DNA of 64,000 nt. Origin: a phage. The notes under the pieces were generated by a model. That model was not told where the DNA came from, made no database searches, and saw only the letters and a program-made list of their open reading frames with translations. Position 1 is the stretch's first letter, and the number at the start of each line of letters is the position of its first letter. A program made the position numbers and the translations under genes. Of the stretch, positions 8,146-49,516 are shown piece after piece. The stretch is from NCBI GenBank assembly GCA_012455605.1, contig GCA_012455605.1_3618.1, one strand, 5' to 3'.

Positions 8146-8541
8146 TTACTGAAACAGTGCGGATAAATTACCTTCTGGTGGGAACTTATCTGCCAAAAAC
8201 GGTGTTAGCACAGTAGCCTTCTGAAGATCTGGGGTCCACTCGTTGTTCAGAACATCCCAGTAGTACGCAATGTTGCTGTGTGGGTGCCGCATTACGAACT
8301 TTTTCCCTTCGTAGTCATCTGAAACCTCTACAGAAGAAATAACAACAGAATCTTCAAGGGTTTCTTCATAGAAAGATCCACCTTCAAATTTCCAACGAGA
8401 TGCAAGAGCCCCTGCCTTGAACGCTGCAGATAACGGACTGTCGGCAAGAACATACATTTCTTGCACTCTGTCGCTGCGATCTTTGCTTCTTACGTTGTAT
8501 ACAGTATCTGAGCTATACTCAACACGGTATAGGCTTACCAT
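8146..8541 (-). CDS. hypothetical protein, paralog family B (131 aa)
   Basis: shares the FVMRHPHS..YYWD...EWTPD...ATVLTP block with the 10353-10751 product. Confidence 0.5.
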   Translation of the reverse strand: MVSLYRVEYSSDTVYNVRSKDRSDRVQEMYVLADSPLSAAFKAGALASRWKFEGGSFYEETLEDSVVISSVEVSDDYEGKKFVMRHPHSNIAYYWDVLNNEWTPDLQKATVLTPFLADKFPPEGNLSALFQ

Positions 8542-9502: not shown

Positions 9503-9639
9503 TTAGAGGTCTCCTCAATTATTTGATATTAATAGCCGTAACCTAACACATTAACTACAACTGCGATTGCAAACATAATTTCAAAGCATGCAATCTCTAC
9601 ATTTGGGACTAATTTCTTAATCACACCCATTGTAGCACC

Positions 9640-9960
9640 TCATTCTCCAAAGTCAATCTTTACTTTGCCTTTCCCCTTACCTTTCTTTCCACCGCATTTA
9701 GCCAGCTGACGTGCTGCAACATCTACCATACGGTCAGTTGCCTCGTAAGCATCACTGCCTTTAGCCTTGGCAATAACTTCTTTTCCAGAATTGTCAAAAA
9801 TGAACGCCATAACTTCCTGGTGATCATTTTCAACTTTTACACTCACACGTGCATAGTTAACAGAGGGATGTAAACGCTCCAGCTTGGACATTTTGCGGGA
9901 AATAAAAGATACCATACCTTCTGTGATTTCTACATTGTTGCCAGTGATTTCAATTTGCAT
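9640..9960 (-). CDS. hpf: ribosome hibernation promoting factor / RaiA-family protein
   Basis: N-terminus MQIEITGNNVEITEGM and central SDAYEA...ARQL match the HPF/YfiA family as recalled from E. coli HPF (MQLNITGNNVEITEAL); basic Lys-Gly tail. Confidence 0.75.
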   Translation of the reverse strand: MQIEITGNNVEITEGMVSFISRKMSKLERLHPSVNYARVSVKVENDHQEVMAFIFDNSGKEVIAKAKGSDAYEATDRMVDVAARQLAKCGGKKGKGKGKVKIDFGE

Positions 9961-10009
9961 AACGTGTTCCTTTTAAGGAAGAGGGAATAACTATCTCTCT
10001 TTGAAAACA

Positions 10010-10038
10010 ATGATACTAAATCTGAAGCGTTGTGTCAA
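10010..10038 (-). promoter_or_regulatory. sigma70-like promoter (minus strand, TTGACA-17-TATCAT)
   Basis: reverse complement of plus 10033-10038 is TTGACA and of 10010-10015 is TATCAT; directly upstream of hpf. Confidence 0.5.
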
Positions 10039-10352: not shown

Positions 10353-10751
10353 TCAGTTTAGCTTTTCTTCAACAACCCCATAACTTGGGGCAGAGTCAAG
10401 AGCTTTCTGGTTTAAAAGTGGCGTAGCAGAATCTGCAAACGGTGTCCAAGTTTTTGTTCTGGCATTCCAGTAATGCTTCACTCTGGAGTCTGGATGCACT
10501 ATAACAAAAACTTTTTCACTTGTCAACACATTAATTTCTTCTACACCCTTGCTGATAATTTCTCCGTCATAGCCCCCAGTCTGGTATCCTTCGTACCAGG
10601 TTCTTGCATAGGCATAGCCAGCCTGCCAGCATGCAGCCTCCTCCGAGGTGGAGACTACGTAGAAGTCTTTCTCAAATTCTGGAATACGCCCTTGCTTTAC
10701 GCTCCAAGCCCCGCGAATTTTCATTGTAACTTTAAACAGTTTATTTTTCAC
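10353..10751 (-). CDS. hypothetical protein, paralog family B (132 aa)
   Basis: FVIVHPDSRVKHYWN...TWTPF..ATPL block shared with 8146-8541. Confidence 0.5.
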   Translation of the reverse strand: MKNKLFKVTMKIRGAWSVKQGRIPEFEKDFYVVSTSEEAACWQAGYAYARTWYEGYQTGGYDGEIISKGVEEINVLTSEKVFVIVHPDSRVKHYWNARTKTWTPFADSATPLLNQKALDSAPSYGVVEEKLN

Positions 10752-10763
10752 AACGGTTACCCA

Positions 10764-11018
10764 TCACAGCTCTACAATATCTGCATCTGACCCTACCCCA
10801 AAGGCATAGTAGGACTCTTCCCCGAAATAATATTCAGGTGCACCAGCGGTGATCAGGTCTGATCCCAAGATAAACACCACGTTGTGGCCTACATAACTGT
10901 GATGTTGCCGCACAGGATCATCCCACGGCAACCCTTCAAAGTATACCGCAGGAACGACCTTTCCATTCAGGAAGGATTGTCCCAAGTAGACGTTAGAATC
11001 AAGAATTTTAACCTTCAT
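10764..11018 (-). CDS. hypothetical protein, paralog family A (84 aa)
   Basis: MKVKILD...GSDLITAGA...SDADIVEL pattern shared with 11008-11235 and 14561-14794. Confidence 0.5.
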   Translation of the reverse strand: MKVKILDSNVYLGQSFLNGKVVPAVYFEGLPWDDPVRQHHSYVGHNVVFILGSDLITAGAPEYYFGEESYYAFGVGSDADIVEL

Positions 11019-11235
11019 GATCGTCCTCCACTACCTCTACATCCTCACCTAGGGCAAAGTTATAGGTCCACTGACTGTCAAAGCATTCCTGAGATGCACC
11101 AGCGGCAATAAGATCTGCTCCTTTTATTTTTAAAAGGTCAGGGTAATCTTCGTTAGGGACAGCAGTAAACACTTTTCCTACTAAAGGCTCCTGACCAATA
11201 TAGAAGCTTGAATCTAAAACTTTAACTTTCATCAA
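11008..11235 (-). CDS. hypothetical protein, paralog family A (75 aa)
   Basis: MMKVKVLD...KGADLIAAGA...EDVEVVEDD. Confidence 0.5.
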   Translation of the reverse strand: MMKVKVLDSSFYIGQEPLVGKVFTAVPNEDYPDLLKIKGADLIAAGASQECFDSQWTYNFALGEDVEVVEDDHEG

Positions 11236-45733: not shown

Positions 45734-45805
45734 GCCCTGTTAGCTTAGTGGATAAAGCAGCGGCCTTCTAAGCCGTTGACACTGGTTCGAGTCCAGTACG
45801 GGGTG
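45734..45805 (+). tRNA. tRNA-Arg (anticodon TCT)
   Basis: hand-folded cloverleaf: acceptor GCCCTGT/ACGGGGT, anticodon arm GCGGC-cttCTaa-GCCGT, T-arm ACTGG-ttcgagt-CCAGT, encoded CCA. Confidence 0.75.
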
Positions 45806-45812
45806 CCAAATT

Positions 45813-45896
45813 GGGGAGTTATCCCGTAGAGGTAGCGGTGTAGACTGTAAATCTATTGTCATTGCGACTCGGGTGGTTCGACTCCACCACTCCCCA
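45813..45896 (+). tRNA. tRNA-Tyr (anticodon GTA)
   Basis: acceptor GGGGAGT/ACTCCCC, anticodon arm with CTGTAAATCT as in E. coli tRNA-Tyr, long variable arm, encoded CCA. Confidence 0.7.
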
Positions 45897-46013
45897 CCAA
45901 ATTTATATTTTTAGATGCATAAATAATACAGATAATGGCATTGATATTTATCGTCGTTTATACTAGTCACTAACTGCTCGAAAATCAGTGTCATTATCAG
46001 TATAATTTATAAA

Positions 46014-46101
46014 GGAGGGTAGGGAGCAATGGTGCTCAAGCGGTCTTGAAAACCGTCCCGTTGAGGATGACTCGATGATGGTTCGATTCCATTACTCTCC
46101 G
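46014..46101 (+). tRNA. tRNA-Ser (anticodon TGA)
   Basis: acceptor GGAGGGT/ACTCTCC, anticodon arm GCGGT-cttgaaa-ACCGT, long variable arm, discriminator G, encoded CCA. Confidence 0.7.
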
Positions 46102-46202
46102 CCACATTGTTGACCTTGTAATTAAGCGAAAGCCGGAAGCAGAACCGGATTATCAAATGTTACAGTCGTCATCGCCGACTAGCAACATGGTCAACATACT
46201 GA

Positions 46203-46299
46203 GCTAGGTAAGCCCTTTGGCAAGGGCGAGGATTTTTAATCCTGAAAATAGACGAGGTAGTCGTTGAATACATAGGTGGTTCGATTCCATCACCTAGCA
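46203..46299 (+). tRNA. aberrant tRNA-like gene (Leu-type body, non-canonical anticodon loop; possible pseudo-tRNA)
   Basis: acceptor GCTAGGT/ACCTAGC, D-arm GCCC-tttggcaa-GGGC, T-arm GGTGG-ttcgatt-CCATC, discriminator A; anticodon region AGGAT-tttta-ATCCT has a 5-nt loop (or UUU in the alternative fold); over-long variable region; no encoded CCA. Confidence 0.4.
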
Positions 46300-46306
46300 C
46301 CTTTTT

Positions 46307-46379
46307 GCTGATGTAGCACAATCGGTAGTGCAATTGATTTGTAATCAATAGGTTGTAGGTTCAAGTCCTGCCATCAGCA
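46307..46379 (+). tRNA. tRNA-Thr (anticodon TGT)
   Basis: acceptor GCTGATG/CATCAGC, anticodon arm ATTGA-tttgtaa-TCAAT, encoded CCA. Confidence 0.75.
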
Positions 46380-46383
46380 CCAA

Positions 46384-46455
46384 GGCCCTGTAGCTGGAAG
46401 GTTCAAGCAAGCGACTCATAATCGCCAGACGGTGGTTCAATTCCACCCAGGGCCA
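46384..46455 (+). tRNA. tRNA-Met or Ile2 (anticodon CAT)
   Basis: acceptor GGCCCTG/CAGGGCC, anticodon loop ctCATaa, T-arm GGTGG-ttcaatt-CCACC, encoded CCA. Confidence 0.7.
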
Positions 46456-46469
46456 CCAAATAATAAATA

Positions 46470-46543
46470 CTCCGCGTAGCTCAGCTTGGTAGAGCGCCTG
46501 ATTTGGGATCAGGAGGTCGAGTGTTCGAATCACTCCGTGGAGA
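46470..46543 (+). tRNA. tRNA-Pro (anticodon TGG)
   Basis: acceptor CTCCGCG/CGTGGAG, anticodon arm CCTGA-tttggga-TCAGG, encoded CCA. Confidence 0.75.
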
Positions 46544-46592
46544 CCACTTTCAGTTATACTTTAAACATATACAAACAAAAGGAACCTTTAAA

Positions 46593-47366: not shown

Positions 47367-47650
47367 GAGTTGCTACACTGTTTATTGTGTGCTTGTTATT
47401 ATGTGGGTGTGCAACCAGTGTTGAGAAAGAATACAAGATTGACCCTCCAGATGTAGGAAGGTTGATTGTTAAACCCCCAGAAGGTGCCATGAAACCACCT
47501 GCTAAAGCTATGCCTTTGAAGAAAGGTGCGCCAGATGCAGTAAATTCTGGCATTATGAGGGATAATAATCTGTCTTGTAGCAATGATAGAGCTAAATTGA
47601 TCATTTTGCAAGACTATATTAGAACACTTTTTCCAAAGGAGAGAGGTTAA
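47363..47650 (+). CDS. o-spanin-like (Rz1-type) outer membrane lipoprotein
   Basis: signal peptide with LLLCGCA lipobox-like motif; Pro-rich mature part. Confidence 0.5.
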   Translation: MRVATLFIVCLLLCGCATSVEKEYKIDPPDVGRLIVKPPEGAMKPPAKAMPLKKGAPDAVNSGIMRDNNLSCSNDRAKLIILQDYIRTLFPKERG

Positions 47651-48075
47651 TGTCTAAGATTTACGGACCGTGTTCTGAAAAGCAGAAGATGATCCTCGAA
47701 AACGATGCAGATATTTTGGTAATCGGCGGTGCCGCAGGGTCTGGCAAGTCGTTCCTCTTGCAGTTGATGCCACTTAAAATTATTGATGACCCCCACAGCT
47801 CTGTGGTTATGTTCCGAAGAACAACCCCACAGTTGGAAGGTGAGGGTGGACTATGGCCTAAAGCAGTAGCTATTTATAGTGATCTGCCTGAAAACATTAA
47901 GCCAAAGTTCAGAGAGAAGGATCATAAGTTCATTTTTCCACGGTTTGATCCGAACACTGGCAAGTGGGATAGAAGCAAAAAGGGAGCTGTTGTAAAATAC
48001 TGCCACATGGAGTATGTACAAGATAAGCTTAACCATCAGGGGCTTGAGTACACCATGGTTTGCTTCGATGAGGGT
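47650..48075 (+). CDS. terL: terminase large subunit, exon 1 (ATPase N-terminus: Walker A to Walker B)
   Basis: Walker A GGAAGSGKS; ends with YTMVCFDEG (Walker B-like) just before the stop; downstream ORF supplies the rest of the protein. Confidence 0.7.
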
Positions 48076-48394
48076 TAATTTGTAGCTCTCGTAAAACCTC
48101 CCTAATTGCGGGGAAATCTTTATTATTGACACCACCAGCCTGTTATGGTAACATAATAGAGGCTTCGAAGAGAGATCGAAGGTATGGTAACAGTGTGTTA
48201 ATTTAGATAATCCGCAGCGAAGCATCCGAGAGGATGAACGTTCAACGACTAGTCGAAAGACGTAGAATCAAGCGATTCGAAACGGGAGGGTAAGCGGTTG
48301 TTGTCGCTTATAAGATATAGTCTGGTCTGCATGGAGACATGCAGCTGCCTGAAAATGGCGGGGCAAGACTAGCGACCTTGCCCGAACATGAACG
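48076..48394 (+). mobile_element. group I self-splicing intron (IA2-like, no ORF) in the terminase large subunit gene
   Basis: core elements present in canonical order: P AATTGCGGGGAAA (48104-48116), Q AATCCGCAGC (48209-48218), R GTTCAACGACTAGTCGAAAG (48240-48259), S AAGATATAGTC (48312-48322); P1 pairing of exon GAGGGU (48070-48075) with intron GCUCUC (48085-48090) including U-G at the splice site; 3-prime boundary inferred from frame (alternatives to about 48430). Confidence 0.8.
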
Positions 48395-49516
48395 ACACAA
48401 TTCGAATGGGAGCAGATAGACTATCTGATGTCTCGTCTGCGATCTCAGTCAAAGTATCCATCAAGAATGGTTATCAGCTGTAACCCCGATTCAGAACACA
48501 TGCTTGCCAAACTGGTTAGATGGTGGTTGGACGATGAAGGGTATCCAGATCCGGAGAAATGCGGTAAGAAAAGATATTTTATCCGACGCGACGGTGAATT
48601 TATCTGGGGAGACTCTAAAGAAGAGTTGATAGAGAAATACACCACGGTTAACGGACTGGGTGTGGAGATCAAGCCAAGACCGTTGTCATTCTCGTTTATA
48701 GGCGCAACAATATTCGATAATCCTGTCTGCTTAAGAGACAACCCAGAATACCTTGCTTTCCTTGAAGGTCTGCCGGAACTGGAAAAAGCTCAGCTTCTTC
48801 ATGGTAACTGGTTTGCAAAGCCTGAGGGTGCAAACTATTTTCAAAGATCTTTCCTTCGTGATGCCGATAGAGTACCCATTGGATCAGTATCTTGCAGGGC
48901 ATGGGATAAGGCAGGAACCGAGAGAACTTCCGGTAATAAATTTCCTGACTTTACCGCCAGTATTAAGGTAAGTAAAGATAGCGACGGCTTTTATTACCTG
49001 TCCGGTGATTATTGTCCTGAGAACGTGGATGACGGGAGGTATTCCACAGGTCTGGAAGGCAAGTTCTGTAAAAAGGCTGGTGAACGAGATGTGATCATCA
49101 GGAAACAGGCGCAGTTTGATGGTGATGATTGCATAATCGTATTCTCTGTGGACCCTGGTCAGGCAGGTAAGAGTGAGTTCTTAACCTCATCCAGATCCTT
49201 GCTCGCCGAAGGGTTCAGGGTTGAAGAAGACCCAATGCCTTCCAACAAATCTAAACTGACAAGGTTCTCACCTTTTGCCAATCTTGCACAACAAGGAATG
49301 GTGAGGATTGTAAAATCCAGTTTCCATCCTGATACTCTGGAAGCATTTCTGACTGAACTTGAAAAATTCAACGGAGAAAGATCAACATTTAACAGAAAAG
49401 ACGACTGGGCAGACTGTGTAGCTTCTGCGATTAATTTCCTGGAGAAAGAGGAGGTAGCACTTCCTTGTGTGATTCCATCAATCTCATCACCTTCTATGTT
49501 CAAGCGTTTTATCTAA
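48395..49516 (+). CDS. terL: terminase large subunit, exon 2 (coupling motif and nuclease domain)
   Basis: frame open from 48392; contains RMVISCNPD (like T4 gp17 IIITTTPNG); exon start inferred. Confidence 0.65.
   Translation, partial: TQFEWEQIDYLMSRLRSQSKYPSRMVISCNPDSEHMLAKLVRWWLDDEGYPDPEKCGKKRYFIRRDGEFIWGDSKEELIEKYTTVNGLGVEIKPRPLSFSFIGATIFDNPVCLRDNPEYLAFLEGLPELEKAQLLHGNWFAKPEGANYFQRSFLRDADRVPIGSVSCRAWDKAGTERTSGNKFPDFTASIKVSKDSDGFYYLSGDYCPENVDDGRYSTGLEGKFCKKAGERDVIIRKQAQFDGDDCIIVFSVDPGQAGKSEFLTSSRSLLAEGFRVEEDPMPSNKSKLTRFSPFANLAQQGMVRIVKSSFHPDTLEAFLTELEKFNGERSTFNRKDDWADCVASAINFLEKEEVALPCVIPSISSPSMFKRFI

Follow-up and report, generated by a model that had tools for sequence, protein, structure and literature searches.

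A divergent, long-kept HPF-family protein of rV5-like coliphages and its possible place on idle host ribosomes

The YhbH/HPF and YfiA/RaiA family consists of ribosome-binding hibernation factors, which counts against a historical reading of its phage members as regulators of sigma-54. The gene of this family in phage rV5 was annotated in the 2006 GenBank record DQ832317 as ORF144 (ABI79209), 'sigma 54 modulation factor'. Product names in GenBank now vary between this name, 'ribosome hibernation promoting factor' and 'RaiA', and a few records wrongly name the gene 'ATP-dependent protease La'. Taken at its word, the first of these names, which many records carry, would make the product a sigma-54 modulation factor regulating RpoN-dependent transcription. 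What favours this is a historical product name only, taken over from a homolog in the Klebsiella rpoN operon (note in DQ832317), and all solved homologs found were ribosome-bound factors. True sigma-54 modulation is effectively excluded, its probability being close to nil.

The rV5 protein ABI79209 and its orthologs were listed as virus-encoded HPF by Mizuno et al. (2019, Nat Commun, PMC6375957), who placed viral HPFs of the rV5 type among gammaproteobacterial sequences and carried out ribosome experiments discussed below. The hpf gene of rV5 was mentioned once more as an auxiliary gene, 'as already described', by Mathieu et al. (2020, PMC6969025); no functional follow-up after 2019 was found in the literature searched. 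Given the annotation of 2006 and the experimental publication of 2019, the gene was already known, as were its promoter and its HPF identity, and a first-pass annotation of the DNA studied here had missed both the annotation and the publication. The gene itself thus adds nothing new, and only its role in infection is left of interest.

The window analysed here is a stretch of 64,000 nucleotides of phage DNA (GCA_012455605.1, contig GCA_012455605.1_3618.1). The 3 kb around the gene were 99.9% identical to Escherichia phages navn, SophiaRose, MaxBurger and others and at most 98% identical to most other rV5-like phages listed (97.8% for FFH2, for example), a pattern which identifies the window as belonging to a Vequintavirus (rV5-like) myovirus, a coliphage. 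The first-pass annotation had reported an HPF homolog at 9640-9960. An open reading frame is indeed present there, but its location on the minus strand, with the stop codon at 9640-9642, had been missed. The translation, MQIEITGNNVEITEGM...SDAYEA...ARQL with the C-terminal tail KCGGKKGKGKGKVKIDFGE, is the same as the letters quoted at the time. Features of the locus are collected in Table 1.

Table 1. Features at the locus of the HPF-family gene, in positions of the window.
Feature	Position	Strand	Basis
Sigma-70-type promoter, TTGACA (10038..10033)-17 nt-TATCAT (10015..10010)	10010..10038	minus	Promoter scan, 11/12 matches
Shine-Dalgarno AGGAA	9967..9971	minus	Read from the sequence; 6 nt before the ATG
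CDS, phage HPF-family protein, 106 aa, ATG start	9640..9960	minus	ORF list and profile/PDB matches
Predicted folded part, residues 1-89	9694..9960	minus	AlphaFold2 and Foldseek
Gly/Lys-rich, predicted disordered C-terminal tail, residues 90-106 (GGKKGKGKGKVKIDFGE)	9643..9693	minus	pLDDT <50 for residues 91-106
33-aa hydrophobic ORF, rV5 ORF145 homolog	9529..9630	minus	ORF list; 9 nt downstream of the HPF gene

The gene lies in a run of minus-strand genes extending from about 4 to 42 kb, the first part of which (about 4-16 kb) contains the small genes around it. For rV5, 88 mainly small ORFs in the corresponding part and 33 sigma-70-type promoters have been described (Kropinski et al. 2013, PMC3606486). 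The ten ORFs flanking the HPF gene gave no Pfam match and only PHROGs of unknown function, and an Rfam scan of the gene region returned no RNA family. Opposite-strand ORFs across the gene were of 30-36 aa only and without any support, and were discarded. The small hydrophobic ORF downstream belongs to phrog_15151, of unknown function, and is annotated at the same position in related phages. It may be co-transcribed with the HPF gene. No terminator-like site was reported between the two, and the promoter scan gave a promoter-like 10/12 match at 9656..9629.

The first-pass annotation had proposed a profile search against the S30AE/HPF family as a check. The protein matched Pfam PF02482 (Ribosomal_S30AE) over aa 3-89 with E=4e-15 and 56.7 bits against a gathering cutoff of 23.7, and NCBIfam TIGR00741 (HPF/YfiA family) with 56.8 bits against a cutoff of 40.9. 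The best PDB sequence matches were the E. coli HPF entries 2rql, 4v8h and 6h4n (E ~4e-15), and E. coli HPF itself aligned with the phage protein at 43% identity (E=1e-21). All residues that are near-invariant in the family, taken as those conserved to at least 90% in a 70-sequence alignment, are present in the phage protein (G7, K23, D70, Y72, D76, Q85). Membership of the HPF/RaiA family is therefore close to certain, and the earlier proposal of a 106-aa homolog is borne out by both profiles and these residues, as well as by the predicted fold and the purifying selection described below.

Within the family, the best-scoring subfamily profile was NF007780, the E. coli HPF equivalog. Its score of 65.2 bits stays under the cutoff of 125, so that the protein does not rank as an equivalog, and the RaiA/YfiA equivalog NF007654 gave 22.8 bits against a cutoff of 158. 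The PDB match to YfiA had an E value of 0.02, compared with 4e-15 for HPF. Identity with RaiA was about 25%, an approximate value obtained with a RaiA sequence of 114 aa instead of 113, and the comparison with RaiA accordingly rests on the equivalog scores and PDB matches rather than on this figure. By sequence, short HPF is a far nearer relative of the phage protein than RaiA is, which leaves the RefSeq name 'RaiA' without support at subfamily level and makes 'HPF-family protein' the accurate one. The protein is a single domain of 106 aa with the architecture of a short HPF, for which a length of about 95-100 aa is typical. No long-HPF C-terminal dimerisation domain was found, the Pfam scan giving no second domain and the protein ending at residue 106 in the disordered tail. 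Among phage protein families it was assigned to phrog_12469 (232 bits, against 33 bits for phrog_8990).

The AlphaFold2 model, built from the 70-sequence alignment, had a block-mean pLDDT of 84-94 over about residues 1-90, with predicted elements E2-8, H14-30, E34-44, E47-56, E61-68 and H71-89. A Foldseek search of the PDB returned ribosome-bound E. coli HPF (6h4n_x) as top match, with an rmsd of 1.1 Å over 89 columns, 43% identity and a target-normalised TM-score of 0.88. V. cholerae HPF came next, and numerous N-terminal domains of long HPFs as well as RaiA and protein Y structures followed. On 4hei the model superposed at 1.2 Å. The phage protein is thus predicted to adopt the HPF/RaiA fold.

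The Lys/Gly-rich tail noted in the first-pass annotation stood up as well. The tail carries a net charge of +4 and raises the pI of the protein to 9.0, compared with 6.5 for E. coli HPF, and makes the phage protein 11 residues longer than the latter. Alleles differ in the number of tail repeats and in the very end of the tail, which is basic in all of them; the allele of phage Murica is truncated in the tail. An ortholog from a second phage lineage (cluster P0004, 64-66% identical) also has a basic tail, of different sequence.

The earlier description of the gene as uncommon applies outside the genus, where it is rare: E. coli HPF matched 130 of 50,697 phage records, of which about 118 are Vequintavirus. 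Within Vequintavirus the description does not apply, the gene being close to universal there. The protein was found by tblastn in 119 phage records, and the surrounding 3 kb matched 121. The window allele is a minority one, shared at 99% identity or more by 22 of the 119 records. Bas54 (MaxBurger), a Vequintavirus of the BASEL set, encodes a protein identical to it. In comparisons of 12 Vequintavirus alleles with the window allele, dN/dS was 0.03-0.11 and dS reached 0.74. Purifying selection on the HPF gene is strong.

The evolutionary analysis relied on the GenBank phage records and on an exhaustive HMMER search covering 1.84 billion representatives, in which only one other close cluster was found, P0004. 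It is encoded in a similar same-strand block of small genes in divergent rV5-like contigs of about 126-137 kb. A further hit, P0007 (1160 aa, 8 matched stretches), is without an HPF-like start and was left out of the alignments. A word-indexed protein search gave 5 clusters, all from phages, and an IMG/VR scan 2 loci. Among cellular representatives the nearest, with 44% identity, was an HPF of enterobacterial type whose own identity to E. coli HPF is 87%. In 5,426 complete E. coli genomes the gene had no DNA-level match.

These data bear on whether the gene could be a functionless passenger, a recently captured or decaying host gene with no role in infection. Nothing specific favours this apart from the single tail-truncated allele of phage Murica. 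The low dN/dS, the presence of the gene in a divergent sister lineage besides the 119 records, the distance to the nearest cellular relative, the lack of a DNA match in E. coli genomes and the conserved promoter and ribosome binding site all argue against it. A passenger is likewise effectively excluded, at a very small residual probability. From the dN/dS and dS values, the divergent ortholog and the distant cellular relative it follows that the gene is old in its lineage, host-derived in type and functional, and its age corrects the suggestion made in 2019 (PMC6375957) of a relatively recent transfer. An rV5-like ancestor would have captured the gene long ago from a short HPF of enterobacterial type, and purifying selection would have kept it since.

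The first-pass annotation had also credited the gene with its own consensus promoter. A conserved sigma-70-type promoter is present, beginning a few bases past the stop codon of the upstream gene, but it is near-consensus rather than perfect. Both this promoter and the Shine-Dalgarno sequence were kept in 16 out of 16 homologous loci fetched, divergent uncultured relatives included. In the rV5 record DQ832317, ORF144 is immediately preceded by an annotated 'Sigma70-type promoter; P144', and the Shine-Dalgarno sequence is annotated as RBS in phage Murica. Promoter matches of at least 11/12 were enriched in the window (16, against 1.4 +/- 1.1 expected), 12 of the 16 being on the minus strand within the gene run of about 4-42 kb. 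Most likely, unmodified host RNA polymerase would transcribe the HPF gene from its own promoter, and the block of small genes around it looks like an early, host-takeover region. Early transcription by the host polymerase can reasonably be inferred, with its timing read from the promoter type only. A hairpin in the 5' UTR (AAGAGGG...CCCTCTT) seemed conserved at first sight. It carries a mismatch in the window allele and has only one pair with a double change; because of the mismatch and because it folds no better than shuffled sequence (z = -0.93), it is not claimed as a feature.

Positions that contact the ribosome were taken from two cryo-EM papers (10.1101/2025.10.07.680626 and 10.1101/382572) and mapped through a 106-sequence family alignment. 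In E. coli numbering, G7, K23, K26, R29, E44, D69, Y71, D75, R83, Q84, K87 and K91 are retained in both phage lineages. Nine positions are replaced in both: Y30 by L, R33 by S, T53 by F, H55 by F, H62 by I, K80 by V, and K89, K93 and H95 each by G. Position 30, leucine in the phage protein, is aromatic or His in 80 of 102 family representatives; position 80, valine in the phage protein, is K or R in 86, and position 89, glycine in the phage protein, is K or R in 91. On the basic track of helix alpha2 (80, 83, 87, 89, 91, 93), three of the six residues are kept (R83, K87, K91), and extra lysines are found in the tail. R83 of HPF contacts m4C1402 and has been described as the single essential arginine, while R33 and K93 of E. 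coli HPF touch the E-site tRNA and H95 stacks on G693 (10.1101/2025.10.07.680626, 10.1101/382572). As the changes are common to both lineages and the gene is under purifying selection, they represent a derived state and not decay. This specific set of substitutions, together with the tail, could explain an altered behaviour of the protein in the phage clade.

The rV5 gene has been expressed in E. coli (PMC6375957). The protein was detected in the crude extract and was absent from purified 70S/100S ribosomes, and expression caused no discernible change in 100S. Cells were harvested at OD600 = 1 and ribosomes were pelleted through a sucrose cushion with 500 mM NH4Cl; the 100S result at this density does not come from a complementation test. 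According to the supplementary mass spectrometry data of that study, the crude extract of cells expressing phage HPF (Supp. Data 5) contained host HPF, RMF, RaiA and phage HPF, and all four were absent from the ribosomes of the same cells (Supp. Data 4). Host HPF and RMF were also absent from the ribosomes of cells that expressed other viral proteins, bS21 (Supp. Data 2) and bL12 (Supp. Data 3), where RaiA was present with 1 peptide and with 2 peptides (6 spectra), respectively. The ribosome data are single, non-quantitative runs of different depth (54, 80 and 71 proteins).

The salt wash thus removed even the host's own HPF and RMF. The absence of the phage protein is what a true HPF would show here and is therefore uninformative on binding. 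The first-pass annotation had named a lack of ribosome binding in vitro as an outcome that would count against its proposal. The published co-purification negative comes near to this, yet it leaves ribosome binding unrefuted: a binding test that had no working positive control is not readable as loss of function. Of the three ribosome preparations, only that from cells expressing phage HPF lacked host RaiA, although the extract of these cells contained it; this is weakly suggestive of competition for a shared site. In the runs that detected RaiA, it was seen by 1-2 peptides only, which speaks against this hint.

The same experiment bears on the possibility that the HPF scaffold was kept while ribosome binding was lost, the protein having turned to another host target such as an RNA or an enzyme. 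T7 Gp1.2 offers a precedent, as a phage protein of similar fold that acts on a different target. The negative ribosome result carries little weight here for want of a working positive control, host HPF and RMF having been absent too. The protein has kept R83 and other basic contacts as well as every near-invariant residue of the family, and with 43% identity it resembles host HPF far more than Gp1.2 (13%). Such repurposing of the fold is considered quite improbable.

Binding at the canonical ribosomal site is probable. The phage protein would bind vacant host 30S or 70S particles in the HPF site, the channel between the 30S head and body that overlaps mRNA and the A- and P-site tRNAs, because the fold and the key contacts K23, K26, R29, D75, R83, K87 and K91 are kept. 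Against binding, two of the best-conserved basic residues of helix alpha2, K80 and K89, are gone, as is the stacking residue of position 30, and the interaction could thereby be abolished and not merely weakened.

The first-pass annotation had suggested, in hedged terms, that a phage HPF could modulate host ribosome dimerisation or translation. What the protein would do at this site can be read in opposite directions. As a canonical pro-hibernation HPF it would work with host RMF in the manner of E. coli HPF, which converts RMF-induced 90S particles to 100S, and would stabilise 100S dimers, shutting down host translation or parking ribosomes, for instance in starved cells. This agrees with the greater closeness to HPF than to RaiA in identity (43% against about 25%) and score (65.2 against 22.8 bits), with the short-HPF architecture and with the retention of R83, K87 and K91. 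Overexpression gave no discernible change in 100S, however (PMC6375957), and R33, K93 and H95, which make the E-site tRNA contacts and the stacking on G693, are all replaced. The longer basic tail, moreover, resembles the arrangement in RaiA, whose tail overlaps the RMF site (PMC13152769), and no RMF homolog was found in the 50,697 phage records. A canonical pro-hibernation role is on balance unlikely.

In the alternative direction, the protein would compete in a salt-labile manner with host RaiA/HPF on idle ribosomes, or hold their place, and would be RaiA-like rather than a simple driver of RMF-dependent 100S formation. Several considerations incline the reading this way: the flexible tail of RaiA overlaps the RMF site and prevents dimerisation (PMC13152769); the phage tail is 11 residues longer than that of E. 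coli HPF; the C-terminal contacts of the latter are lost; no phage record encodes RMF; and overexpression brought no rise in 100S. The competitive or anti-dimerisation direction as such is nevertheless speculative, and we hold it only tentatively, at somewhat under an even chance. In its stronger form, the protein would be a derived anti-hibernation factor, a weakly bound HPF mimic with a polybasic tail that evicts RaiA/HPF and blocks RMF-dependent 100S formation. The loss of Y30, K80, K89 and H95 would then tune its affinity so that it gives way to initiation on phage mRNA, and phage translation in hosts that grow slowly or are arrested by defence would find ribosomes still available, or protected. 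This stronger form is doubtful.

Taken as a whole, the protein is best described as a divergent, long-kept member of the HPF family that most likely binds vacant ribosomes and may act there as a salt-labile competitor of RaiA/HPF or as a placeholder, a reading to which we give about an even chance. Against it stand the scores under both equivalog cutoffs (65.2 against 125 and 22.8 against 158) and the sole experiment, in which the phage protein was not found in the 70S/100S fractions and 100S was unchanged (PMC6375957). Phage hibernation factors are among the few direct viral ligands of the ribosomal decoding centre. Whether they favour hibernation or work against it bears on the replication of virulent phages in stationary-phase or dormant bacteria, and hence on gut ecology and phage therapy.

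Among described systems, rV5 ORF144/gp144 (ABI79209) is the same gene, with a 97% identical protein, the same position, the promoter P144 and the same neighbours. Compared with it, the window allele has one more Asn in the loop between beta1 and alpha1, reading ITGNNVEITE like E. coli HPF where rV5 has ITGNVEITE, and carries R22 and V34 in place of H22 and A34. The HPF of Cronobacter phage GAP32 (phrog_8990) belongs to the same Pfam family and also comes from a large myovirus, but it falls in a separate PHROG from phrog_12469. It was placed elsewhere in the tree than the rV5 type (Mizuno et al., PMC6375957), which implies an independent acquisition.

On the host side, E. coli short HPF (YhbH) has the same fold as the phage protein and nearly the same first 14 residues; it differs at Y30, R33, T53, H55, H62, K80, K89, K93 and H95, all replaced in the phage. 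E. coli RaiA (YfiA, protein Y) likewise has the same fold and would share the binding site. RaiA and the phage protein both have a flexible C-terminal extension past helix alpha2, and the two tail sequences are unrelated; in RaiA, dimerisation is blocked by this extension, which overlaps the RMF site (PMC13152769). The phage protein is homologous to the N-terminal S30AE domain of the long HPFs found in Firmicutes and others (S. aureus, B. subtilis) but, with its 106 aa and disordered tail, lacks the C-terminal dimerisation domain that follows in those proteins. T7 Gp1.2, a dGTPase inhibitor (PDB 7u66) and, like phage HPF, a small phage-encoded protein, shows a weak resemblance in fold (Foldseek E=1.7e-3; TM-scores 0.49 query-normalised and 0.59 target-normalised). 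It has 13% identity with phage HPF, differs from it in inter-helix angle and in target, and serves only as a precedent for repurposing of the fold.

The gene for the ribosome hibernation promoting factor (HPF) homolog is flanked on both sides by paralogous small genes, assigned to two families by their PHROG matches. One phrog_7379 member lies on either side, and the two phrog_5009 members are neighbours of each other. A conserved hydrophobic ORF, homologous to ORF145 of phage rV5, starts 9 nt 3′ of the HPF stop codon, and a promoter-like site with 10/12 matches (9656..9629) is located within the 3′ end of the HPF gene itself.

Features in the surroundings of the HPF gene, the tRNA cluster and the large terminase gene
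Feature	Position	Strand	Basis or location
phrog_7379 member (131 aa, first of the pair)	8146..8541	-	PHROG match
33-aa hydrophobic ORF, conserved (rV5 ORF145)	9529..9630	-	phrog_15151
Short hairpin AAGAGGG-loop-CCCTCTT	about 9972..10003	-	5′ UTR of the HPF gene
phrog_7379 member (123-132 aa)	10353..10751	-	PHROG match
phrog_5009 member (84 aa)	10764..11018	-	PHROG match
phrog_5009 member (74 aa)	11008..11235	-	PHROG match
tRNA cluster	45734..46546	+	ARAGORN, Rfam
Odd tRNA-like gene (99 nt)	46203..46301	+	Within the tRNA cluster
Group I intron	48066..48344	+	Rfam RF00028, 84 bits

A short hairpin immediately 3′ of the predicted HPF transcription start is kept across the alleles. The allele of the window carries a mismatch in this hairpin, and its stability was no greater than that of shuffled sequence (z = −0.93). 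At the other end of the gene, the Gly/Lys codon repeat encoding the protein tail is polymorphic in length. The tail is two amino acids shorter in YN3 (L009), its end is altered in an IMG/VR contig (L003), and in the record of phage Murica (L015, 401..700) it is truncated to KKGKGKAK*, which is due either to a frameshift or to a sequencing error.

Published mass spectrometry data (PMC6375957, Supplementary Data 2-5) place host RaiA on ribosomes from cells expressing viral bS21 or bL12; it was not detected on ribosomes from cells expressing viral HPF. The host's own HPF and RMF turned up in the crude extract only.

The HPF ortholog is named ‘ATP-dependent protease La type I’ in OR062525, OR062530, MT884008, MT884009 and MT884011. 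The name ‘sigma 54 modulation factor’ has, in phages nom and S127 BCL3, been given to the gene that follows the small ORF145-type ORF; in annotations that include this ORF, the misnamed gene is the second one 3′ of the HPF gene. Both the protease name and the shifted name are propagated annotation errors. Furthermore, 18 ‘UNVERIFIED: Campylobacter phage’ records (MG0656xx, e.g. MG065646), with Campylobacter jejuni as the stated host, are Vequintavirus genomes, showing 97.8-99.9% identity to this E. coli phage window among the matches listed; mislabelling or contamination of the assemblies is the probable explanation.

The tRNA cluster comprises Arg-tct, Tyr-gta, Ser-tga, Thr-tgt, Met-cat and Pro-tgg. 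ARAGORN assigned a four-base anticodon (atcc) to the odd tRNA-like gene, which scored just 35.5 bits with Rfam.

The large terminase gene is interrupted by a group I intron between two ORFs on the forward strand. The first (47650..48078) matched positions 2-104 of the Terminase_6N profile, the second (48428..49516) positions 117-211 and the nuclease domain. No ORF of at least 50 aa was found on the forward strand inside the intron, the sole overlapping ORF being one of 124 aa on the reverse strand (47851..48225). For the large terminase gene of rV5, introns were reported as three segments, one of them with a homing endonuclease (Kropinski et al. 2013, PMC3606486). In the window, a single intron of approximately 350 nt was seen.
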